From a virus (Duplodnaviria; Caudoviricetes): DNA of 64,000 bases. A program made the position numbers and the translations under genes. The stretch covers positions 96,001 to 160,000 of the IMG/VR virus record IMGVR_UViG_3300035208_002098; one strand, 5' to 3'. A model generated the notes under the pieces. It was not told the origin of the DNA. It saw only the letters and a program-made list of their open reading frames with translations, and did not search any database. How positions within the stretch are numbered: position 1 is the stretch's first letter; each line of letters opens with the position of its first letter. This document shows, in pieces, positions 4,548 through 56,390 of the stretch.

Positions 4548-4562
4548 ATGTTTATTTTTTTG

Positions 4563-4647
4563 CAGACCCCGTAAGACTCGAACTTACAAACCAATTAAAG
4601 GCATTAGATTCAAAATCTAACGTGTTTACCAATTCCACCAGAGGTCT
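4563..4647 (-). tRNA. tRNA with Gln anticodon (TTG) on a Leu-like long-V-arm body
   Basis: D-arm GGTGGAATTGGTAAACAC, TTAGA-TTTTGAA-TCTAA, G73. Confidence 0.8.
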
Positions 4648-5207: not shown

Positions 5208-5236
5208 TTATTTTATTCCCAATATGTCAATGAAAA

Positions 5237-5965
5237 TTGGTTTTTGTAAAATATCTAGATATTTATAGATATATACAAATTATTATGATACCATTATACA
5301 CTGAAGAAGAATTTAAAACCGCCAAATCATTTGATGAATTATCATGCCAATGTTTAATTTGTGGTAAAACATTTAAACAAAAAAAATACATTGTAAAAAT
5401 GGCTTTAAGTCCAAAATATGAAAGGACTGGTGATTTTTGTTCACTTACATGTCAACAAAAATCTAATATAAAAAAAGATACATTTAAAATATTTAATTGT
5501 TGTAATTGCAATAAAGAAATTATAAAACAATCGTCAGCCAGTAAACGTCATAAAAATACTTTCTGTTCACATTCATGCTCTACAAAATATTTAAATTCAC
5601 ATAAAACTACCGGTACAAGACGTTCTAAATTAGAAATGTATGTTGAAGAACAACTTACATTACTTTACCCTAATCTAGATATTAAATATAATGATAAATC
5701 AGTTATTAATTCTGAATTAGATATCCACATACCATCACTTAACTTAGCATTCGAACTTAATGGTATATTCCATTATGAACCAATATTCGGTGTTAATAAA
5801 TTAGACCAAATACAAACTAATGATATATCTAAATCAAAAGCCTGTATAGATGCAAAGATTGATTTATGTATAATAGATACATCTGGTCATAAATATGTTA
5901 AACCTAAAACTAGTGAAAAATATCTTAATATTATAATTAAAATTATTAACACTAGATTAGCCTAA
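5237..5965 (+). CDS. Zn-finger + PD-(D/E)xK/Vsr-like putative homing endonuclease
   Basis: Repeated CxxC..FCS..C motifs; ELDIHIPSLNLAFELNGIFHY; paralog of 62643-63329. Confidence 0.8.
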   Translation: MVFVKYLDIYRYIQIIMIPLYTEEEFKTAKSFDELSCQCLICGKTFKQKKYIVKMALSPKYERTGDFCSLTCQQKSNIKKDTFKIFNCCNCNKEIIKQSSASKRHKNTFCSHSCSTKYLNSHKTTGTRRSKLEMYVEEQLTLLYPNLDIKYNDKSVINSELDIHIPSLNLAFELNGIFHYEPIFGVNKLDQIQTNDISKSKACIDAKIDLCIIDTSGHKYVKPKTSEKYLNIIIKIINTRLA

Positions 5966-5980
5966 CTTTTTAAAATTTAT

Positions 5981-5998
5981 CCAATATGTCAATGAACT
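5981..5998 (-). promoter_or_regulatory. boxA-like antitermination site (copies at 5219-5234, 14956-14968, 21342-21359, 54292-54310)
   Basis: AGTTCATTGACATATTGG recurs near the 5' end of each RNA operon. Confidence 0.7.
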
Positions 5999-6042: not shown

Positions 6043-6085
6043 AAAAACAAAAAACCCAATCTACATTTCTGAGGATTGGGTCTTT
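6043..6085 (-). terminator. attenuator terminator, tRNA operon 1
   Basis: AGACCCAATC/GATTGGGTTT hairpin followed by a T tract. Confidence 0.85.
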
Positions 6086-6114
6086 ATATTATTTTGAAAG
6101 AATACTCTAATTCT

Positions 6115-6201
6115 TTACATAAAATTATATAACATACCCAATCCGTTTTGGCCCTCGCCTTTCGGTTGTTTCGTTCCTTGATATGTTGTATACGTTTTCA
6201 T
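6115..6201 (-). CDS. leader peptide 1: MKTYTTYQGTKQPKGEGQNGLGMLYNFM
   Basis: 28 aa ORF between promoter repeat and terminator; codons 2-18 are only K,T,Y,Q,G,P,E. Confidence 0.88.
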   Translation of the reverse strand: MKTYTTYQGTKQPKGEGQNGLGMLYNFM

Positions 6202-6230
6202 TGTTTTAATTTTTATATTTTTAATATTCT

Positions 6231-6318
6231 ATTGTTTGTTTATAAATATACTGCAAAGATATGAAAAGTTTCAATACGAGTCAAGTATTTTCGCATTTAT
6301 TTTCAAATTATTTTTTAA
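6231..6318 (-). promoter_or_regulatory. tRNA-operon promoter repeat, copy 1
   Basis: ACTTGACTCGTATTGAAACTTTTCATATCTTTGCAGTATATTTATAA; TAnnTTTG element; near-identical at 21797-21880 and 54586-54678. Confidence 0.85.
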
Positions 6319-8123: not shown

Positions 8124-8612
8124 TTAAATTATTTTTTTGATTATATTATTTATCAGATTAATTGATTCTTCGGTTATTTCACCACCTTTCTTAATATTCT
8201 TTGTATGATATATGAATCTAAGATTATCGATATGTGCTATAGCTTCAGGTGGTATTTGATTCTTAAACCCGGAATGGATTGGGTATATATGGTCTAAATG
8301 ATATTTTCTAAAACCTCTTTTTTCATGATTCCTTAATATTGTTAAATCGTTTGCCTCTGTCAATAACCATACTTTAATATAATATATTTTTTTAGGTATA
8401 TTTTTAATTGATTTAACTCGATTCTTAATATAAGGGTTTTTCTTTAGTAATATCTGTAATTCCTTTTTTTGTTCTAATTCTTCGGGATTTACTATTATTA
8501 CACTAGCTTCTTTTACAAATTCATTATTACGTCTTACCCAAGTTCCTTTAGGGTCCCATACATATTCACGTTTCCCCTTATAATTTATTGCTCTATATTT
8601 AGTATTATCCAT
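8124..8612 (-). CDS. HNH-like protein
   Basis: YHLDHIYP...NLRFI...N. Confidence 0.7.
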   Translation of the reverse strand: MDNTKYRAINYKGKREYVWDPKGTWVRRNNEFVKEASVIIVNPEELEQKKELQILLKKNPYIKNRVKSIKNIPKKIYYIKVWLLTEANDLTILRNHEKRGFRKYHLDHIYPIHSGFKNQIPPEAIAHIDNLRFIYHTKNIKKGGEITEESINLINNIIKKII

Positions 8613-13062: not shown

Positions 13063-13189
13063 TGGTGATAATAGGATTTGAACCTATGCCATTATAAAGT
13101 TAATAGAAATCTCAATTAACCATTCAATTTCATCTTTATAACCTAACCTAACTATCGTTAGTGCTCTCACCGGACTGAGCTATACCATC
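13063..13189 (-). ncRNA. tRNA-scaffold RNA with ~50-nt variable-arm domain
   Basis: Normal D and T arms, no 7-nt anticodon loop, TTATAAAG/CTTTATAA stem. Confidence 0.55.
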
Positions 13190-13672: not shown

Positions 13673-13834
13673 TAGAAATGATTGGATTCGAACCAATGAC
13701 CTTCTCACTTATGAGGTGAGTCGTTCTGATTAATATTTCTGACTTCCCTAGAAGTGTTTTACTCTATTAACCCCAAGTTGTGAATCCCATCCCTATTTTA
13801 CTAGAGCCAACTTAGCCACTCAACGTACATTTCT
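13673..13834 (-). tRNA. tRNA(CAT) with ~90-nt D-loop insertion
   Basis: AGAAATG/CATTTCT, D-stem CGTT/AACG enclosing the insert, CTCAC-CTCATAA-GTGAG, perfect T-arm. Confidence 0.75.
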
Positions 13835-21335: not shown

Positions 21336-21367
21336 ATATTACCAATATTTCAATGAACTAAATCCAG

Positions 21368-21452
21368 TACGACCTGTAGGATTCGAACCTACGTTATACT
21401 ATTCGCCTCTACTGTGTAAAAGTAGTGCTCTTACCAACTGAGCTAAGGTCGC
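21368..21452 (-). tRNA. tRNA-Val(TAC), long variable region
   Basis: CTACT-TTTACAC-AGTAG. Confidence 0.85.
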
Positions 21453-21459
21453 ATTTTTG

Positions 21460-21547
21460 AGTACCCGGTCAGATTTGAACTGACGATGAAGCTTTCGCTT
21501 TGGTGGTTTTGCAGACCACCCCCTTCGACCACTCGGAGCACAGATAC
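21460..21547 (-). tRNA. tRNA-Cys(GCA), long variable arm
   Basis: GTGGT-CTGCAAA-ACCAC, V-arm AAGC-GAAA-GCTT, U73. Confidence 0.85.
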
Positions 21548-21591: not shown

Positions 21592-21627
21592 AAAAAAAAA
21601 GTCCAATTCTTTTGTAGAACCGGACTT
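21592..21627 (-). terminator. attenuator terminator, tRNA operon 2
   Basis: AAGTCCGGTTCT/AGAATTGGACTT hairpin plus T tract. Confidence 0.85.
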
Positions 21628-21662
21628 AGTTTTTTATGTTTTTAAAAATTTGTTTTACCAAA

Positions 21663-21770
21663 TTATTTATATAACTTATTAACGTAGTCCGACCTCTTTA
21701 ACGCATCAAATGCATCAAATAAGACTGCTGTACAATCTAGAAGGGCTAATATGTTAAAAGTTGTTATCAT
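21663..21770 (-). CDS. leader peptide 2: MITTFNILALLDCTAVLFDAFDALKRSDYVNKLYK
   Basis: 35 aa ORF; 16 of codons 8-24 are L,A,D,C,V,F. Confidence 0.88.
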   Translation of the reverse strand: MITTFNILALLDCTAVLFDAFDALKRSDYVNKLYK

Positions 21771-21796
21771 TTTTATATTTTTTGTTTTATTACTAC

Positions 21797-21880
21797 TTGT
21801 TTGTTTATAAATATACTGCAAATATACGAAAAGTTTCAATACGAGTCAAGTATTTTCGCATTTATTTTTAAATTATTTTA
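21797..21880 (-). promoter_or_regulatory. tRNA-operon promoter repeat, copy 2
   Basis: Near-identical to 6231-6318. Confidence 0.85.
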
Positions 21881-49191: not shown

Positions 49192-49271
49192 AACGAGTGG
49201 AGGGATTCGAACCCACATTTACAACTCCGTTTACGTTTATATAGTTCGTAGCTATACTCGGTTACACTCGC
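49192..49271 (-). tRNA. tRNA-Arg(ACG), D-arm absent or relocated
   Basis: GCGAGTG/CACTCGT, 8-nt linker, TATAG-CTACGAA-CTATA. Confidence 0.75.
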
Positions 49272-49917
49272 TTATGATATTATATCTTTTAACCCATTTT
49301 CTGACCGTATTATCACTAACACCATATTTTCTACCTATTGCACAATACGACATATTTTTAATCATATCATTAAGTTCTAATTCTGTTGGCCATTCAACTT
49401 TCCTAAGGTCTAATCTAATTTTATTTACTGTTCTACCATCTATTTTTTTTACTTTATTTTCCGGTAAACCTTTACTTCCAAGACAATGTGTTGGTAAAGT
49501 TGAATTACAATTTGGGCATAAAAACCTTAAATTTTCTAATCTGTTATCATTATTAACACCATTAATGTGGTCTAATATTAAAGTTATTTTTTCACCTAAC
49601 CATTCACCTTTATTACCACATTTAACACATTTATACTCTAATAAATTATCATTAATAATTCTTTTTTTTATACAAGCCCGACTTATAATCGAATCCTTAG
49701 TAAAAAGCACATCATTTTCATACTTTGTTCGAACTCCAATATTTTCACGTTTTATTGTAAAATGACTAACATCTATCTCATATCGAACCAATAATTTCTT
49801 TAATATTTTATACGAACCACCAGACTCATTCCTATTTAGTTTTACCAACACTTCTCTATAACTATTACAACCAGCAACTATTATAACCAGCTCACTCTTT
49901 TCATATCTTTTATACAT
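49252..49917 (-). CDS. HNH homing endonuclease with C-terminal HTH
   Basis: LILDHINGVNNDNRLENLRFLCPNCN. Confidence 0.9.
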   Translation of the reverse strand: MYKRYEKSELVIIVAGCNSYREVLVKLNRNESGGSYKILKKLLVRYEIDVSHFTIKRENIGVRTKYENDVLFTKDSIISRACIKKRIINDNLLEYKCVKCGNKGEWLGEKITLILDHINGVNNDNRLENLRFLCPNCNSTLPTHCLGSKGLPENKVKKIDGRTVNKIRLDLRKVEWPTELELNDMIKNMSYCAIGRKYGVSDNTVRKWVKRYNIISECNRV

Positions 49918-50143: not shown

Positions 50144-50165
50144 ATTTAATAAGTATTTGTTTATG

Positions 50166-50237
50166 TGACCTCACTGGAATTCGAATCCAGATTTAAAGTT
50201 TAGGAAACTCCCGTTCTATCCATTAAACTATGTGGCC
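50166..50237 (-). tRNA. tRNA-Arg(CCT)
   Basis: Loop TTCCTAA. Confidence 0.85.
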
Positions 50238-50238
50238 A

Positions 50239-50481
50239 TTAAGGATTAATTTGTTGTTGAATATCTTTAATATGTGTTACAATATTTTGAACATTAACAT
50301 GTTTAACTGCTTTAGTTAAAAAATCTATTGTGGTCTCATCATTTTGATACATATCAATAGCACCTAGAATATTATTTAATTCGTTACGTAATCGTTCAAT
50401 TGGTGTTTCATTTTCTTCATATTCACCATTTGAAAATTCCATTAAATTTTCTCTAATTTTAATTTTAGTATCTCGTTTCAT
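50239..50481 (-). CDS. hypothetical protein (KIRE N-terminal motif)
   Basis: 80 aa ORF. Confidence 0.6.
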   Translation of the reverse strand: MKRDTKIKIRENLMEFSNGEYEENETPIERLRNELNNILGAIDMYQNDETTIDFLTKAVKHVNVQNIVTHIKDIQQQINP

Positions 50482-50511
50482 TGTATTAATATTATATACA
50501 ATAAATATCTA

Positions 50512-51114
50512 TCAATTCTTATAGTTCTTAACATACCTATCTTTTCTAGCAGAATTTTTATTCTTAGATTTATATGTTCCTAATTGCGAATCACAATTAG
50601 GGCATACACACCTTAAATTACTTCTAGTATTATTACTAGCATCACCATCAATATGGTCTAATATAAATACTATAGGTTTATTATTCCAAATATCTAACAT
50701 CCTACATATATCACATAAATTATTTTGTTCTTTTAAAATATGTGGTTTTATAGCTTTAGTATCATATAATATACCACGATATTGCTCTTGATTAATTAAA
50801 TAATTTTCATACGTTGAATTCATCTTATATTCACTAGAACATCTTATACTACAAAATTTTTGTTTATCATAACTAGTTGTAATACATTTACCACAATTTA
50901 AACAAATAATTTTTTTTATTGTACCAGTATTATATGGTTTAAAACCTTCAGGAAAAGTCTTCCTTGTAATCAATTGTATACCTAAACGTTTACATACTTT
51001 TTTTATGTAAGTATCACTAACACCATATATCTCACCTATTTTAGTATAGGGTAATTTTTCTTCAAAAATTAATTTTTCTAAATCACCCTTTTTGTATTTA
51101 TCTTCAAAATTCAT
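50512..51114 (-). CDS. HNH homing endonuclease
   Basis: FILDHIDGDASNNTRSNLRCVCPNC. Confidence 0.9.
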   Translation of the reverse strand: MNFEDKYKKGDLEKLIFEEKLPYTKIGEIYGVSDTYIKKVCKRLGIQLITRKTFPEGFKPYNTGTIKKIICLNCGKCITTSYDKQKFCSIRCSSEYKMNSTYENYLINQEQYRGILYDTKAIKPHILKEQNNLCDICRMLDIWNNKPIVFILDHIDGDASNNTRSNLRCVCPNCDSQLGTYKSKNKNSARKDRYVKNYKN

Positions 51115-51196
51115 AATATGTTTTATTATAAATATCTAGATAAATAATAAACGAACCAAAAGTAAATATTTTTTTAAGTTTACTTTTGGTTCGTTG

Positions 51197-51282
51197 TGAA
51201 CGAGGGGGGAGTCGAACCCACAAGTACTTTACAGTAAACGATTTAGAAGACCGTGACGCTTCCAATTACGTGCTACTCGTCC
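51197..51282 (-). tRNA. tRNA-Arg(TCT), long variable arm
   Basis: ACGGT-CTTCTAA-ATCGT. Confidence 0.8.
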
Positions 51283-51532
51283 ATTACACCATGAAGGCAT
51301 TTTTTAATGTTTATATAATTTGAATATAGTTTCTTCTATTTCATCACGAATATCTTCATCCGTTAATTTAATATCCTTCATCTCATCTTCTATCATAATA
51401 TCCTCATTAATAATAGTCATTTCTATTTTATCATCTATGTTTTTCATATGTTTATCCTTTTACTATAATTATCACAAATATACTAAATAGTTAAGATAAA
51501 TTCAATATTTTCTTAACCAATTTATTAAAAAG

Positions 51533-51612
51533 AGGTCTAGGTGGGGGTCGAACCCACATTTACAATATCCATTACCCGTAACAGTTTCGAAGACTGAGGG
51601 GATTACAAGACC
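51533..51612 (-). tRNA. tRNA-Arg(TCG), D-arm absent or relocated
   Basis: GGTCTTG/CTAGACC, 8-nt linker, CAGT-CTTCGAA-ACTG. Confidence 0.72.
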
Positions 51613-51613
51613 A

Positions 51614-52039
51614 TTACCCTATTGGTGCAACATATCTAGGGTTTTCGTTTCTTAATATAGCTATTAACTTTCTAATTTCTTTAGGTTGTTCACTATACCA
51701 ATTATTGGCTTCAATAACTAAATCATTATATTCTTCCTCACTATAACAGAATATTTTACCATCAATTTCGATATCAGTACTAGCGAGTGATAATTCCGGA
51801 TAGTCAATAATAGGTTCTAAAACAATACCAGCAACGTTAACCCAAAAATTATAATCCTCATCAGATAATTCAATTCTACCGTTACTAAATAAACTATCAA
51901 TCATAATTTTAGCATCAAATATAGTACAATTAAAATATTTTTTAGCTTCACTTATAGCATTATGTCTACCAAATTTAAATATACCGTTATACGATATTAC
52001 ATAATATTTTTTCATAATTAAATTGTTATTAGAATACAA
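51614..52039 (-). CDS. hypothetical protein
   Basis: 141 aa ORF; true start probably MKKYY. Confidence 0.65.
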   Translation of the reverse strand: MYSNNNLIMKKYYVISYNGIFKFGRHNAISEAKKYFNCTIFDAKIMIDSLFSNGRIELSDEDYNFWVNVAGIVLEPIIDYPELSLASTDIEIDGKIFCYSEEEYNDLVIEANNWYSEQPKEIRKLIAILRNENPRYVAPIG

Positions 52040-52083
52040 AGATAATACAATTAATTTAATTTACCAAATATTTTATTTTTTAG

Positions 52084-52168
52084 TACACCCGGAGGGATTC
52101 GAACCCCCAAGAACATAAAGTCACCTCTTTAGAAGAGAGGGACGCTTCCAATTACGTGCTACGGATGC
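52084..52168 (-). tRNA. tRNA-Arg(TCT), long variable arm
   Basis: CCTCT-CTTCTAA-AGAGG. Confidence 0.82.
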
Positions 52169-52178
52169 ATTTTTAAGA

Positions 52179-52264
52179 GGGAAGGGTGGGAGTCGAACCC
52201 ACGATGGAACTTACGTTCACCAGATTAACAGTCTGGACTTTTCGACCACTAAAGCAACCGACCC
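52179..52264 (-). tRNA. tRNA-Asn(GTT), long variable arm
   Basis: CCAGA-CTGTTAA-TCTGG, V-arm GAAC-GTAA-GTTC. Confidence 0.78.
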
Positions 52265-52351
52265 ATGGCGTGATTATTTGAACTAGCGTTCTGGAACTAC
52301 TAAACCTCGTCATACTCTAATCACAATAACCAATAAGTATGCAGAACCTCG

Positions 52352-52432
52352 TATTGATGGTGGGATTCGAACCCACGTTTTCAATTTACCACTACGAATA
52401 TCCAAGATATAAGCTTGGCTCGGTACATCAAT
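52352..52432 (-). tRNA. tRNA-Ile(TAT), D-arm absent or relocated
   Basis: ATTGATG/CATCAAT, 7-nt linker, CCAAG-CTTATAT-CTTGG. Confidence 0.75.
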
Positions 52433-52442
52433 ATATTTAAAG

Positions 52443-52515
52443 TGGGCCTACACAGACTTGAACTGTGAATCTTCTCCTTATGAGGGAGGTGCCTTCACCA
52501 TTTGGCTATAGGCCC
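52443..52515 (-). tRNA. tRNA(CAT), probably Ile2
   Basis: GGGCCTA acceptor typical of Ile2, loop CTCATAA, sits among Ile tRNAs. Confidence 0.8.
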
Positions 52516-52521
52516 AAACTT

Positions 52522-52818
52522 TTATACAATTTTAATAAATTCACCATTATCAATTGCTTTACCAATCCACCTATTTAAGAAAGATGCTTTAATTTGATTT
52601 TCAAAAGATGTTGTACCTAAATCAGCTGATAATTTAATGAATGGTAATTCAACTTCAGGTTTACCAATTACTTTAACAGTCTCAATAGTTTCGATTGGAA
52701 ATTGAAAAATACCTTCTTCTATTTCTACTGTATAATATAAATTACCAGAACAATAATGTGAAAATTTAGCACTTACTTTAGATTTTAATAATTGTTTTTG
52801 AACATTTAATTTTTCCAT
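52522..52818 (-). CDS. hypothetical protein
   Basis: Start taken at MEKLNV because the longer ORF overlaps a tRNA. Confidence 0.65.
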   Translation of the reverse strand: MEKLNVQKQLLKSKVSAKFSHYCSGNLYYTVEIEEGIFQFPIETIETVKVIGKPEVELPFIKLSADLGTTSFENQIKASFLNRWIGKAIDNGEFIKIV

Positions 52819-52844
52819 TTTAATAATTGTTTTTAATTTATTTG

Positions 52845-52918
52845 TCCGCTTGATAGGACTTGAACCTATAACCTCTTCCGTATCAGGGAAGTAATCTAAC
52901 CAATTGATATACAAGCGG
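52845..52918 (-). tRNA. tRNA-Ile(GAT)
   Basis: CTTCC-CTGATAC-GGAAG. Confidence 0.88.
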
Positions 52919-52934
52919 ATTTATTATTTCTTAG

Positions 52935-53010
52935 GTACCTAAATTGGACTCGAACCAAAAACTAACTAGTATAAGGCTCCACAAGCCTCAGTGCCATCCC
53001 GGCTAGGTAC
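52935..53010 (-). tRNA. atypical tRNA-His(GTG)
   Basis: 8-bp acceptor GTACCTAG/TTAGGTAC, GAGGC-TTGTGGA-GCCTT. Confidence 0.65.
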
Positions 53011-53015
53011 ATTTG

Positions 53016-53100
53016 TCGTCTGGGTGAGATTTGAACTCACGTTGAGAATTAATCTCACAGCTTATCAGGCTGTTTTCTGCCACCACTCGAATACCAGACA
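53016..53100 (-). tRNA. tRNA-Ile(GAT), long variable arm
   Basis: ACAGC-CTGATAA-GCTGT, V-arm GAGA..TCTC. Confidence 0.82.
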
Positions 53101-53146
53101 ATGTTAGACTCCGATTTTTTTCTAGGCAGAACGTTGTCTAAGTAAA

Positions 53147-53803
53147 CTACACAAGATATCGACCTTTTATCCAACCTTCATTTTCCCAGTTAGATAAGTC
53201 TTCGTTTTTAATCTTCTTATTAATATTATCTTTAGTAATCCAACAGGTACCATATTGTGAATTAGTTTCACCAACACCAGTACCACTTTTAATTTCAGAC
53301 ATTTTTAGTTTAGTTTCATTTGAATGGTTTTTATCTGTCCAATTATAAAAATATTTTCGTTCTAAAACTTCATCATCATATAATTTCTTAATAGTCTTAA
53401 CAAATTTTCCACTTCTTTTTTTAACCCAATCTGGGTTTGTTTCTCTAAGTTCTTTTTGTCTCTCATTAGATTTAAACGCATTTAATCTTTGTTCTTCTGA
53501 AGTAAAACCTCTTCCACCTTCACCACCAATCATTAGATTCATACATAAATCTTCCTTTAATAATTGTTTATTTACAAGCTCTTTTTCACGCTCTTTTAAT
53601 GATTCTCTATCTGGTAAAAATTCTAATATCTCTTTAATGAAATTTTCTTTACCATAATAATTAATTGAAAACCATAATCGTTTACCTGAACCTAGATAAC
53701 CATCTTCTAGGTTATTAGTACTATGCATTCCTATATAGTACTTATTGTTTATTACATTTGTTGTTTTATAAATGTAATGATATTGTTTTTGTCTTCTACC
53801 CAT
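53147..53803 (-). CDS. GIY-YIG (Seg-like) homing endonuclease
   Basis: Paralog of 17600 and 20004. Confidence 0.88.
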   Translation of the reverse strand: MGRRQKQYHYIYKTTNVINNKYYIGMHSTNNLEDGYLGSGKRLWFSINYYGKENFIKEILEFLPDRESLKEREKELVNKQLLKEDLCMNLMIGGEGGRGFTSEEQRLNAFKSNERQKELRETNPDWVKKRSGKFVKTIKKLYDDEVLERKYFYNWTDKNHSNETKLKMSEIKSGTGVGETNSQYGTCWITKDNINKKIKNEDLSNWENEGWIKGRYLV

Positions 53804-53854
53804 ATTTATATCGTTTATTATATAAATATAAGGTAAAGTACAAAAATGTCAAGT

Positions 53855-53928
53855 GGGTGTAAGCACGGTATCGAACCGAGTTCTCGTGATTCACAGTCAC
53901 GCACATCACCTTAATGCTTCAAACACCA
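53855..53928 (-). tRNA. tRNA-His(GTG)
   Basis: CGTGA-CTGTGAA-TCACG, C73. Confidence 0.85.
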
Positions 53929-53936
53929 TATATTTG

Positions 53937-54018
53937 AGGAAGATAGAAGAATCGAACTCCATACCTACAGGTATCCCTAGGGTTCAAGCCTAGTTTGCCA
54001 CCGATGGCGGTACCTTCC
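53937..54018 (-). tRNA. tRNA-Ser(TGA)
   Basis: CTAGG-CTTGAAC-CCTAG, V-arm. Confidence 0.8.
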
Positions 54019-54027
54019 ATAAATTTG

Positions 54028-54112
54028 CGGAGGTAGTAGGGCTCGAACCCACACGGGTGTTACCCCGACCACGGTTTTCAAGACCGGTACAATACCATTC
54101 TGTCACACCTCC
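54028..54112 (-). tRNA. tRNA-Ser(TGA)
   Basis: Loop CTTGAAA, V-arm, G73. Confidence 0.9.
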
Positions 54113-54116
54113 ATTG

Positions 54117-54187
54117 CACAGGTAGAAAGGGTCGAACTCTCACGGAAGGTTTTGGAGACCTTAATGCTACCATTACATTATACCTGT
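54117..54187 (-). tRNA. tRNA-Trp(CCA)
   Basis: AAGGT-CTCCAAA-ACCTT. Confidence 0.88.
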
Positions 54188-54195
54188 ATATTTTG

Positions 54196-54284
54196 CACAT
54201 CGGTAGGGATTCGAACCCTCATCTAATCTTACGACCCTTAAGGACTGGGTTGGAGCCAGCTAGTCACGCCTAATGAGCCGATGT
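54196..54284 (-). tRNA. atypical tRNA-Trp(CCA), long variable region
   Basis: GCTGG-CTCCAAC-CCAGT. Confidence 0.65.
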
Positions 54285-54315
54285 GTATTTACCAATATGT
54301 CAAAGAACTTTGTTG

Positions 54316-54387
54316 CGGACAAGGAGAATTTCGAAATCCCGACCCTCTGGTTAACGGCCAGACGCTCTGCCTCTGAGCTACGTGTCC
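54316..54387 (-). tRNA. tRNA-Asn(GTT)
   Basis: TCTGG-CCGTTAA-CCAGA, G73. Confidence 0.85.
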
Positions 54388-54401: not shown

Positions 54402-54437
54402 AAAAAAGCCTGAAACGTTTTTACGAATCAGGCTTTT
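54402..54437 (-). terminator. attenuator terminator, tRNA operon 3
   Basis: AAAAGCCTGA/TCAGGCTTTT hairpin plus T tract. Confidence 0.85.
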
Positions 54438-54469
54438 AAGCTTTTAATATTTTTAATATCTTATCTTGT

Positions 54470-54562
54470 TTACAAGAAATTAAACATACCTGATTCGGAA
54501 TGGATAGAACGTCTAATGTTCGACCAATTACTATGAATACTATGTATATTATTATTTCTCAT
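54470..54562 (-). CDS. leader peptide 3: MRNNNIHSIHSNWSNIRRSIHSESGMFNFL
   Basis: 30 aa ORF; codons 2-22 are only R,N,I,H,S,W. Confidence 0.9.
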   Translation of the reverse strand: MRNNNIHSIHSNWSNIRRSIHSESGMFNFL

Positions 54563-54585
54563 TTTTTCTATTTGTTTATTGTTTA

Positions 54586-54678
54586 ATTCTATTGTTTGTT
54601 TATAAATATACTGCAAAGATATGAAAAGTTTCAATACAAGTCAAGTATTTTCGCAATTATTTTCAATTTATTTTTTAA
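54586..54678 (-). promoter_or_regulatory. tRNA-operon promoter repeat, copy 3
   Basis: Near-identical to 6231-6318. Confidence 0.85.
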
Positions 54679-54700
54679 TTTGTTGATTATCAGACAATTA

Positions 54701-55228
54701 TTATTTTAAAAATTTAGCTGGTACGTGGTCAGTTAACCAGACACCGTTAGTTGATTGATAGAAAATAAACCCTTCGTTATACATTTCACCGGCTAATACT
54801 TCAAATATAATTGGTTTACCATGTCTACTACCGACATTTGTGGCCGTTTCAATATCATTACTTAAATGAACATAGTCTCTTTTTAATTTTAGTAATCCAT
54901 TTTCATTAATCGATTTAACACTATCAATACTAGTACCATGATATAATATATTAGGTGGTGTTTTACTTTCATATTGTAGGTCAATACCTAATGAATGGCC
55001 TTGACTAGCTCTGATTTTTGATTTATCATTATTAAACTCAAATCTTTTTTTATTATTAGTTCTAACAATAAACTCAAGTTCTTCAATGTCTATTTTTCTA
55101 CCATTTTTATTCATTTGTAATAGTAATTGGGTAACTTCTACCCAACCACTATTATCTAATTTTAAACCTATTGTTTCTGGTTTATGTCTTAATATAAGAC
55201 TTAAAAACCTACTATTATCGTTACTCAT
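54701..55228 (-). CDS. kptA: RNA 2'-phosphotransferase Tpt1/KptA
   Basis: SLILRH, KKRF, IRASQGHS, YHGT, VHLS. Confidence 0.93.
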   Translation of the reverse strand: MSNDNSRFLSLILRHKPETIGLKLDNSGWVEVTQLLLQMNKNGRKIDIEELEFIVRTNNKKRFEFNNDKSKIRASQGHSLGIDLQYESKTPPNILYHGTSIDSVKSINENGLLKLKRDYVHLSNDIETATNVGSRHGKPIIFEVLAGEMYNEGFIFYQSTNGVWLTDHVPAKFLK

Positions 55229-56390
55229 TTAACATTTTATTAAAGTTTTCTAATTCAAGTTCATGTATTTTTTTACCCATTTCAGGTCCGGGTTTAATAC
55301 CTAATTTTTCTATATCTTCACCGGTAACTGTAAATTTAAAATCTAAGAATTTATCAATTAATTCGATGTCCATATTGTTTAATTCAGCGAATCTAATAAC
55401 TTCATCATTAGAAATTTTAGATAAAATTTGTGATTTTTTCGCATTATAAACTAAATTTGGTTCAAAATATAAGAATGACATTAAGAAGTATATTTTACCT
55501 ATTTCATCACTAGTATATTTTAACTCAGCTAACACTTTTTTTACGAGTGCTGGTGAATTACCTTCAAATATTATGGCCATTAAAACAATTGGACTTTTAA
55601 CTTCAATTAAATTAAAATGTCTAATGTTTAAACCGGGAAAAATAAGTTTAAACATATCATAAACAAATAAACTATTTAAAAATTGTCTAACTGATTTTGC
55701 TGTTTTAACACCTTTAATAAATTCATCTCGAATTCTTTCTGGTGACACACCAATTAAGTTATTATCTTTAGTTATAGCACCAGCTGTTTTGGAGTTCATA
55801 TTAAAACCAAATCTAGCTGAAAATCTAATAGCTCTTAATTTTCTAAGTTTATCTTCATTAAATCTATCAATTGGTTCACCAACAGTTCTAATTTCGCTAA
55901 AACGTAAATCGTAAATACCATCAACTAAGTCAACTATTTGACTTTTTTCTATATCATAGAATAAAGCATTGATTGTTAAATCTCTTCTAAGTACATCCTT
56001 TTCTATAGTTGAGAATATAACTTCATCAGGTCTTCTTGAGTCGGTATAATCACCATCTTCTCTGAATGTCGCAATTTCATATTCGTCATTACCAGTAATA
56101 ACATTAATAACACCAAATGCTTTACCGGTTTCCAAGATATTAGTAACAAATGGTTGACCTTTAAGAATTTCAATTATTTTATCTGGTATTGCATTTGTAG
56201 CTAAATCCCAATCTTTTGGTTTTAACCCTAAATATGCATCACGAACTGAACCACCGACTAGGAATAAGTCAAACCCAAATGTTTTAAAAACTTTATTGAT
56301 TTTTATAACATCTTCTGGTAAATCTATTTTAAAATCTAATCTTGTTTCCATTTTATTGTTCTTTTTAATTAGGATACAAAGATAACACAA
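55221..56390 (-). CDS. cca: CCA-adding tRNA nucleotidyltransferase
   Basis: VGGSVRD, KDWDLAT, RRDLTINA, EDKLR.LRAIRF; most tRNAs here lack an encoded CCA. Confidence 0.88.
   Translation of the reverse strand: MCYLCILIKKNNKMETRLDFKIDLPEDVIKINKVFKTFGFDLFLVGGSVRDAYLGLKPKDWDLATNAIPDKIIEILKGQPFVTNILETGKAFGVINVITGNDEYEIATFREDGDYTDSRRPDEVIFSTIEKDVLRRDLTINALFYDIEKSQIVDLVDGIYDLRFSEIRTVGEPIDRFNEDKLRKLRAIRFSARFGFNMNSKTAGAITKDNNLIGVSPERIRDEFIKGVKTAKSVRQFLNSLFVYDMFKLIFPGLNIRHFNLIEVKSPIVLMAIIFEGNSPALVKKVLAELKYTSDEIGKIYFLMSFLYFEPNLVYNAKKSQILSKISNDEVIRFAELNNMDIELIDKFLDFKFTVTGEDIEKLGIKPGPEMGKKIHELELENFNKMLNE

Follow-up and report, generated by a model that had tools for sequence, protein, structure and literature searches.

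The virus record that holds the locus belongs to an uncultured phage and is a single contig of 248,412 bp with a GC content of 27.7%; it contains a tmRNA and 48 genes for tRNAs. The window, that is, the whole stretch of 64,000 nucleotides analysed here, accounts for 43 of the tRNAs, each of them carried on the minus strand. Along this strand, the locus reads as a gene of the CCA-adding/poly(A)-polymerase family (55221-56390; PF01743, E 4e-35), a KptA/Tpt1 gene (54701-55228; PF01885, E 4e-48), a promoter, a leader open reading frame (ORF), a terminator hairpin and tRNA-Asn, the first gene of a tRNA operon. The two Pfam hits bear out an earlier note on this DNA, which had placed kptA and cca directly upstream of an attenuator. 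In what follows, G000 stands for the present 248-kb phage, and the other L and G numbers for the related contigs and genomes compared with it.

The promoter, found by motif scan at 54614-54645 (minus strand), is of the Bacteroidota type, CTTG-N20-TATCTTTG, and its -7 box TATCTTTG occupies 54614-54621 on the same strand; the consensus described for Bacteroidota promoters is TTTG/TANNTTTG (TAHHTTTG) (PMC6847099). Motif scanning detects no second promoter motif between 49000 and 55000. The 5' untranslated region (5'UTR) of the leader is A-rich and contains neither a Shine-Dalgarno (SD) sequence nor an AUG, and an SD-less, A-rich start context corresponds to the initiation pattern of Bacteroidota (PMC6847099). 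The promoter and the start of the 5'UTR are part of a repeat of about 97 nt (54592-54688, minus strand) that a three-copy alignment finds near-identical ahead of two further leaders of the genome (21797-21895 and 6232-6330). The shared stretch extends about 45 nt upstream of the promoter CTTG, and from the ORF onward the three attenuators have diverged. Exact 25-mer and 32-mer motifs of the repeat are present at 6232-6294, 21797-21859 and 54592-54654 and nowhere else in the 248-kb genome. Such near identity suggests gene conversion or a shared regulator binding site upstream of the promoter.

The leader ORF (54470-54562, minus strand; ATG 54562-54560, TAA 54472-54470) begins at the first AUG of the transcript, about 45 nt past the predicted start site, and runs for 30 codons, MRNNNIHSIHSNWSNIRRSIHSESGMFNFL. 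Its product can be written as M RNNNIHSIHSNWSNIRRSIHS ESGMFNFL, in which codons 2-22 (54497-54559, minus strand; ORF translation) form a candidate sensor run made solely of R, N, I, H, S and W. The leader is followed by a predicted intrinsic terminator (54402-54437, minus strand), a hairpin AAAAGCCUGAUUCG..CGUUUCAGGCUUUU with U6 whose fold reaches -17.1 kcal/mol. Its GC stem pairs 54433-54428 with 54413-54408, the U6 tract lies at 54407-54402, and the fold of the terminator region has a z score of -3.96.

The tRNA operon

The operon downstream (50165-54387, minus strand; ARAGORN, Rfam, Pfam) comprises 13 tRNAs and endonuclease ORFs, and its first gene, tRNA-Asn, begins 14 nt past the U-tract of the terminator. 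The order is Asn, Trp(long), Trp, Ser, Ser, His, Ile(long), Ile, a tRNA with anticodon CAT, Asn(long), Arg-UCU(long) twice and Arg-CCU, with 10 of the 13 tRNAs reaching the Rfam tRNA threshold. ORFs of the GIY-YIG/NUMOD3 (segB-like) and HNH types lie between the tRNAs on the same strand (53147-53803, 51614-52039, 50512-51114 and 49252-49917), in the same way as endonuclease ORFs are interspersed among the tRNAs of phage T4.

About one third of the tRNAs of this phage measure 80-90 nt and have a long, class II-like variable arm, with anticodons for amino acids that are normally served by short tRNAs (Trp, Ile, Asn, Arg-UCU, Thr, Lys, Glu, Gln, Val, Cys and Met). In the operon, these long-armed tRNAs are found at 54195-54284, 53015-53100, 52177-52264, 52083-52168 and 51196-51282, and 3 of them reach the Rfam tRNA score; those elsewhere include 281-366, 1954-2039, 2705-2791, 4562-4647 and 21367-21547. 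Most adjoin a normal-length tRNA with the same anticodon, a pairing that recurs in the genomes G006-G009. Rfam also reports tRNA-like elements that are absent from the ARAGORN calls (49192-49271, 13063-13189 and 13673-13740), one of which measures 127 nt and contains a large insert; the element at 49192, which overlaps the 3' end of an HNH ORF, may extend the present operon. As for suppressors, an amber-suppressor tRNA (anticodon CTA) is located at 93270-93343 of the genome, 2.7 kb before the window. Several relatives have such tRNAs (CTA) too (L009:8032-8188; L215 and L223), and G009 carries an ochre-type tRNA (TTA) inside a putatively attenuated operon.

After the first tRNA, the motif scan identifies a boxA-like motif, TTCTTTGACATATTGG (54292-54307, minus strand). 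The boxA-like sequence TTCWTTGAMATATTGG has four copies in 248 kb, all on the minus strand within three tRNA operons and shortly past their attenuators (54292-54307, 21342-21357, 5981-5996 and 5219-5234), and a boxA-like motif also lies downstream of terminators in L001, L103 and L139. The motif could be a processive-antitermination or processing site. At 5219-5996, the motif and its flank (ttcattgacatattgg) are present in two copies on both sides of an opposite-strand ORF of 242 codons (5237-5965), which sits between attenuator 1 and its first tRNA and looks like a mobile insertion with a duplicated target.

The leader ORF and its amino-acid composition

Reading of the ORF agrees with the earlier note that all codons from 2 to 22 (21/21) fall within R/N/I/H/S/W, and this is the amino-acid set of the 13 downstream tRNAs; for the residues that precede the antiterminator strand (region 2), the match between sensor and operon is 20/20. 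The codons that the note had listed are likewise all present, namely ATA, ATT and ATC for Ile, AGT, TCG, TCT and TCC for Ser, and both AGA and CGT for Arg. In comparison, in-set residues have a background frequency of 0.32 when long ORFs are counted and of 0.35 when all six frames are. Indeed, over six frames and 248 kb, the leader run (22 residues including the start Met) is the longest in-set run of the genome, bar an (INNN)n tandem repeat, and the next-longest measures 12 residues.

The variety of synonymous codons, which the earlier note had stressed, is within expectation, as 13 distinct codons compare with a mean of 10.9 simulated from the codon usage of the genome (P=0.11). A deliberate sampling of many synonymous codons found no support in the codon-usage simulation, with P values of 0.11, 0.84 and 0.31 for attenuators 3 (the present one), 1 and 2, respectively. 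In addition, AGT (present twice) and CGT are found in the sensor with no cognate tRNA anywhere in the present phage, so that the match is cleaner here at the level of the amino acid than at that of the codon. Since the operons of G006 and G008 contain Ser(GCU) and Arg(ACG) tRNAs, G000 seems to have lost these two tRNAs while keeping their codons in the leader.

The leader also bears on the identity of the CAT-anticodon tRNA (52442-52515, minus strand; ARAGORN), which may be read as Met or Ile2 and which the earlier note took, on the strength of the leader match, for Ile2. Among the tRNAs compared, the CAT tRNA indeed comes closest to tRNA-Ile(GAT) of G006, which it matches at 71% and with which it has the D arm in common, but Thr at 70% and Asp at 69% follow with hardly any gap. 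The argument from the leader is weak because ATA is common (42% of the Ile codons in the present genome), because the orthologous leaders of G006 and G008 carry ATA with no Ile2-like tRNA called in their operons, and because the sensors of G006, G007 and G008 include an internal ATG (Met) codon, a CAT tRNA being present in the operons of G006 and G007. The CAT tRNA does not resemble the Met/initiator-like CAT tRNAs of TGCG.. type that these phages carry, and the labels returned by BLAST against phage records are solely 'tRNA-Met' or 'tRNA-Lys' and thus uninformative.

Terminator, antiterminator and ribosome occupancy

The antiterminator strand, or region 2, CGAAUCAGGU (54488-54497, minus strand), was located by duplex energy and covers codons 22-25, corresponding to nucleotides 66-75 of the ORF. 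Region 3, GCCUGAUUCG (54424-54433, minus strand), is common to the antiterminator and the terminator according to folding. The earlier note had described a pairing over 10 bp between CGAATCAGGT (54497-54488) and GCCTGATTCG (54433-54424); the pairing stands, with nine Watson-Crick pairs and one terminal G.U. The duplex of region 2 with the 5' arm of the terminator is predicted at -16.6 kcal/mol, a value that 0/500 shuffles match, and 54 nt separate region 2 from the terminator. The same holds beyond this cassette. Among 18 cassettes from the present and related phages, the native duplexes between leader and terminator arm average -12.3 kcal/mol as compared to -7.5 kcal/mol for non-native ones (0/20,000 permutations as good, P<5e-5), and the antiterminator strand keeps a constant position directly past the sensor run. 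In particular, regions 2, 3 and 4 change together in orthologues, the strand being AAUCAGG in G000 and L001, GGUCAAG in G006 and CGGGU in G008. In the distant relative L008, an antiterminator was not detected, despite a matching leader and terminator.

A 1:2 protector/pause helix of the trp type was rejected on the shuffle test, as duplexes between the sensor and region 2 are no better than those of shuffles (mean -5.4 vs -6.1 kcal/mol) and no such helix was found. This absence results in a three-strand design, in which an untranslated leader is predicted to read through, making ON the default state.

The full-length RNA at equilibrium always adopts the terminator fold, a ribosome mask notwithstanding, and switching must therefore be kinetic, as in the trp attenuator. 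Full-length equilibrium folding, which cannot show switching, was replaced by an occupancy model in which the RNA is cut before the 3' arm of the terminator. In this model, the antiterminator forms with a probability of about 0.97 on ribosome-free RNA and for A-site positions from codon 2 to codon 18, and A-site positions from codon 20 to codon 29 block it. Once the ribosome has reached the stop codon, which lies 16 nt past region 2, this region becomes available again; among the cassettes, the distance between the stop codon and region 2 ranges from 7 to 37 nt. The stop-codon state is the weak point of the model; what could keep region 2 unavailable in it is steric exclusion, timing or a second ribosome waiting in the queue.

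Sister cassettes and related phages

A cassette finder that requires the promoter motif, an ORF of 15-55 codons and a hairpin with a T-run, and that does not require tRNAs, returns exactly 3 cassettes in 248 kb, all of them ahead of tRNA arrays. Besides the present one, these are the sister cassettes at 6049-6285 and 21592-21850. The leader of attenuator 1, MKTYTTYQGTKQPKGEGQ.., has the sensor set KTYQGPE and precedes tRNAs for Pro, Gln, Tyr, Glu, Lys, Trp, Gly and Thr, while that of attenuator 2, ..LALLDCTAVLFDAFDAL.., has the set LADCVF and precedes tRNAs for Cys, Val, Leu, Asp, Phe and Ala. The three sets KTYQGPE, LADCVF and RNIHSW, together with the start Met, add up to all 20 amino acids.

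Relatives were obtained along two lines. A KptA search led to L001 (70% identity) and G001/L008, and a promoter-pattern scan led to G006 (360 kb), G007 (an 83-kb fragment), G008 (187 kb) and G009 (372 kb), each of which has 33-53 tRNA matches. The same promoter motif lies ahead of the leaders in L001, G006, G007, G008 and G009. Other searches were less productive: an exact 25-mer of the promoter/UTR had no match in IMG/VR; the pattern GAATCAGGTATG..CCTGATTC retrieved L001 along with three chance hits that lack tRNAs; scanning metagenome contigs with a KptA profile yielded, for the most part, cellular KptA loci with no tRNA array; and in the relatives L002-L007, tRNAs adjacent to KptA are absent. 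In total, seven phage contigs contain 20 cassettes, 17 of them outside the present genome, but same-type cassettes are homologous between phages, so that the independent events are the re-sortings of amino-acid sets and not the 20 cassettes.

The leaders of these cassettes follow the tRNAs that come after them. The L001 leader, MKTINIHIHNSNSWNIRRS.., precedes Trp, Trp, Ser, an unassigned tRNA and His, after which the contig ends. The leader ..ISIHINSIMNWRRNSS.. of G006 is followed by His, Trp, Ser, Asn, Arg, Ile and Met, the leader ..INIHMNSINWRRNSHSNR.. of G007 by Trp, Ser, His, Ile, Met, Asn and Arg, and the leader ..INIHMISSSNWRRNSS.. of G008 by His, Trp, Ser, Asn, Ile and Arg. In G009, the set of attenuator 3 is split, with tRNA groups and leaders both divided: ..NWSSRRRSSSR.. 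precedes Ser/Arg/Trp tRNAs, and ..NIHINTNTHKHNTT.. (NTNTHKHNTT) precedes Asn/His/Thr/Lys. Two other leaders of the same genome, QSRFQVVFFVQQVQ and GGYPCAADADYGCG, are followed by Gln/Phe/Arg/Val and by Asp/Gly/Tyr/Met/Pro/Ala, respectively. Even in L008, a more distant and GC-richer phage, the leader ..FYFSLSLLSSSLLLS.. stands before Ser, Phe, Tyr and Leu tRNAs. Glu provides a further case of re-sorting. In the present phage, the Glu tRNA is grouped with those for K/T/Y/Q/G/P and E is found in that leader; in G006 and G008, the Glu tRNA is with Asp/Phe/Ala and E has moved to the corresponding leader.

These matches were evaluated on the 16 cassettes with complete operons. Sensor residues are in-set in 220/298 cases, as compared to 74.5 when operons are permuted, with a maximum of 167 in 100,000 permutations (P<1e-5), and when G000, G006, G008 and G009 are taken one genome at a time, no other assignment of leaders to operons scores as well as the native one. 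By codon, 210/298 can be read by the tRNAs of the cassette's own operon. Out-of-set residues are concentrated at codons 2-5 (K, N, I and T, with A-rich codons), which probably serve initiation.

The cassettes of the present genome, G006-G009 and L001 are alike in promoter type, ORF length, position of region 2, terminator and boxA-like motif, and they differ in their amino-acid sets and terminator sequences, each matched to its own operon. The orthologues of attenuator 3 have the common core ..INIH..S..NW..RR..S..GM(F/L). In L001, the closest relative, an additional promoter and some 500 nt of structured RNA (L001:7836-8380) separate kptA from the attenuator, and G000 has nothing comparable there; the 3' part of this RNA (8178-8372) gives a sub-threshold hit to the Rfam manA RNA motif (27.8 bits vs 55.2, E 3e-5).

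Proposed mechanism and alternative explanations

All in all, the element is probably a ribosome-mediated transcription attenuator that gates the phage tRNA operon, being ON by default and turned OFF by fast decoding. The core of the earlier note, a leader-peptide attenuator whose sensor corresponds to the downstream tRNA set, is in this way strongly supported by the statistics, by the complementarity and by the related phages. The anatomy, the statistics, the covariation and the logic of ribosome occupancy can all be read directly from sequence and computation. In particular, the parts come in the right order, with a promoter, an SD-less A-rich start, the ORF, the hairpin with U6 and a tRNA after 14 nt, leaving no space for another promoter.

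In the mechanism that we propose, a host-type (Bacteroidota-like) promoter would give rise to a transcript that begins with the 30-codon ORF. If scarce, damaged or uncharged aminoacyl-tRNAs for R, N, I, H, S or W delayed the leading ribosome at any point of the sensor run, region 2 would remain free. Free region 2 would then capture the 5' arm of the terminator as it emerges, and RNA polymerase would continue into the 13 tRNA genes. Upon fast decoding, the ribosome would instead be on or just past region 2 during synthesis of the terminator, the hairpin would form and transcription would stop 14 nt before the first tRNA. The switch would thus amount to a race, in which the OFF state requires that the ribosome cross about 20 sensor codons in time to occupy region 2 during synthesis of the terminator, and in which cumulative delay at any in-set codon would open the operon. 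The newly made phage tRNAs would speed up decoding and shut the operon again, resulting in negative feedback.

Translation of the leader, regulated termination and the identity of the signal are what we infer from these features. To a ribosome, a tRNA that is rare, one that is damaged and one that is poorly charged all look alike; for a phage, the more plausible signal would be that host tRNAs are depleted or cleaved, and the flanking KptA/Tpt1 and CCA-adding enzyme would fit a context of tRNA maintenance. A more ambitious scheme can be put forward tentatively, as possible rather than probable. During infection, the three leaders might work as dipsticks that jointly audit the decoding of all 20 amino acids, with each leader in charge of one third of a near-complete phage tRNA set. 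A leader would turn on its own third only, once the host tRNAs of that group ran low or were cleaved, as by anticodon nucleases or another defence aimed at tRNAs, and KptA/Tpt1 and the CCA-adding enzyme would perform repair. The whole would represent a sense-and-replace counter-defence circuit and a natural, modular sensor of codon-specific decoding speed.

Among the alternatives, the one that survives best, while still improbable, is a generic switch for translation status or infection timing, which would read through upon collapse of translation late in infection or under any stress, with no role for the composition of the ORF. Indeed, without a 1:2 protector helix any failure of translation would yield read-through, and three cassettes with almost identical promoter and upstream regions would be co-regulated at initiation. 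Nevertheless, such a switch leaves unexplained that each sensor corresponds to its own operon only, that the 20 amino acids are partitioned among the three leaders and that the sensors are re-sorted with the tRNAs in other phages.

Slightly less probable again is a plain terminator or insulator next to a small protein gene, that is, a constitutive, leaky end of the kptA-cca or leader transcript combined with a functional micropeptide and no switching. The terminator is strong and represents the equilibrium fold, and the sister leaders of the Cys/Leu/Val type resemble signal peptides, both of which agree with this possibility. On the other hand, a plain terminator accounts neither for a dedicated promoter between kptA and the ORF, nor for tRNAs that begin within 14 nt and have no promoter of their own, nor for the complementarity between region 2 and the terminator arm that covaries over 18 cassettes. 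The orthologous sensors, moreover, conserve composition more than the order of the sequence, and the RNA strand GGUAUGUU at region 2 accounts for the C-terminal 'G-M-F/L' that they conserve. Finally, a chance low-complexity ORF in AT-rich DNA beside a tRNA array, for which one may quote that Asn and Ile codons are common at 28% GC and that codon variety is not above expectation, has a negligible probability and is refuted by a run length that is extreme genome-wide, by the lack in the 21 codons of all the commonest residues of the genome's frames (K, L, F, Y and E), by the leader-operon match with its permutation tests (P<1e-5), by the covariation of the antiterminator and by recurrence of the pattern in seven phage contigs.

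Significance and comparison with known systems

Over decades, the genes for tRNAs in phages have been debated in terms of codon usage and, lately, of escape from tRNA-cleaving defences (PMC10264068, PMC11555353). The control of their expression is essentially unaddressed in the phage-tRNA literature, and a full-text search of the literature available without subscription found no description of leader-peptide control of tRNA genes. If the cassettes work as proposed, giant phages would gauge how fast each defined group of codons is decoded and make the corresponding tRNAs when they are needed, with feedback. Classical attenuation would thereby gain a new class of target genes, and the grouping of tRNA genes in phage arrays a testable rationale. 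The leader would moreover serve as an independent table of contents against which odd phage tRNA identities can be checked, and the cassettes would provide compact natural parts for sensing codon-specific translation speed.

As regards known systems, the T-box riboswitch binds uncharged tRNA directly and needs no translation. It is alike in purpose, as it senses tRNA status and switches between terminator and antiterminator ahead of translation-related genes, whereas the present element has no specifier/T-box structure and would sense through the translating ribosome. Consistently, the attenuator has no match to the Rfam T-box at E<=10. Of the Rfam leader families (Phe_leader, Trp_leader, His_leader, Thr_leader and Leu_leader), none reaches its gathering score, the best being Phe_leader with 18.2 bits vs 55 (E=1.2).

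Among the enterobacterial leaders, thrL senses Thr/Ile and ilvL of ilvGMEDA senses Leu/Val/Ile, while trpL, hisL, pheL and leuL are single-amino-acid leaders. The likeness to leaders of the thr/ilv/trp type lies in a short translated leader rich in regulatory codons, in the position of the ribosome that selects the fold and in a terminator 5' arm that can alternatively pair with a strand in or beside the leader ORF. In particular, thrL and ilvL have several amino acids in one leader, as is the case here. The present element differs from the enterobacterial leaders in that its targets are tRNAs and not biosynthetic enzymes, its sensor comprises six amino acids over 21 consecutive codons and its stop codon is downstream of region 2. 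It also has no 1:2 protector/pause helix, so that the untranslated leader is predicted to be ON, and its setting is viral and Bacteroidota-like (no SD, TAnnTTTG promoter). The pheM leader, in turn, attenuates the phenylalanyl-tRNA synthetase operon pheST of E. coli. Here the likeness is in the attenuation of a decoding component for the amino acid that is sensed, with feedback on aminoacyl-tRNA supply; the target of pheM is a synthetase, for one amino acid and in a cellular genome, whereas the present targets are tRNAs, for six amino acids and in a virus. By analogy, the multivalent leader peptides of thr/ilv and pheM of pheST thus appear to be the closest in logic to the phage element.
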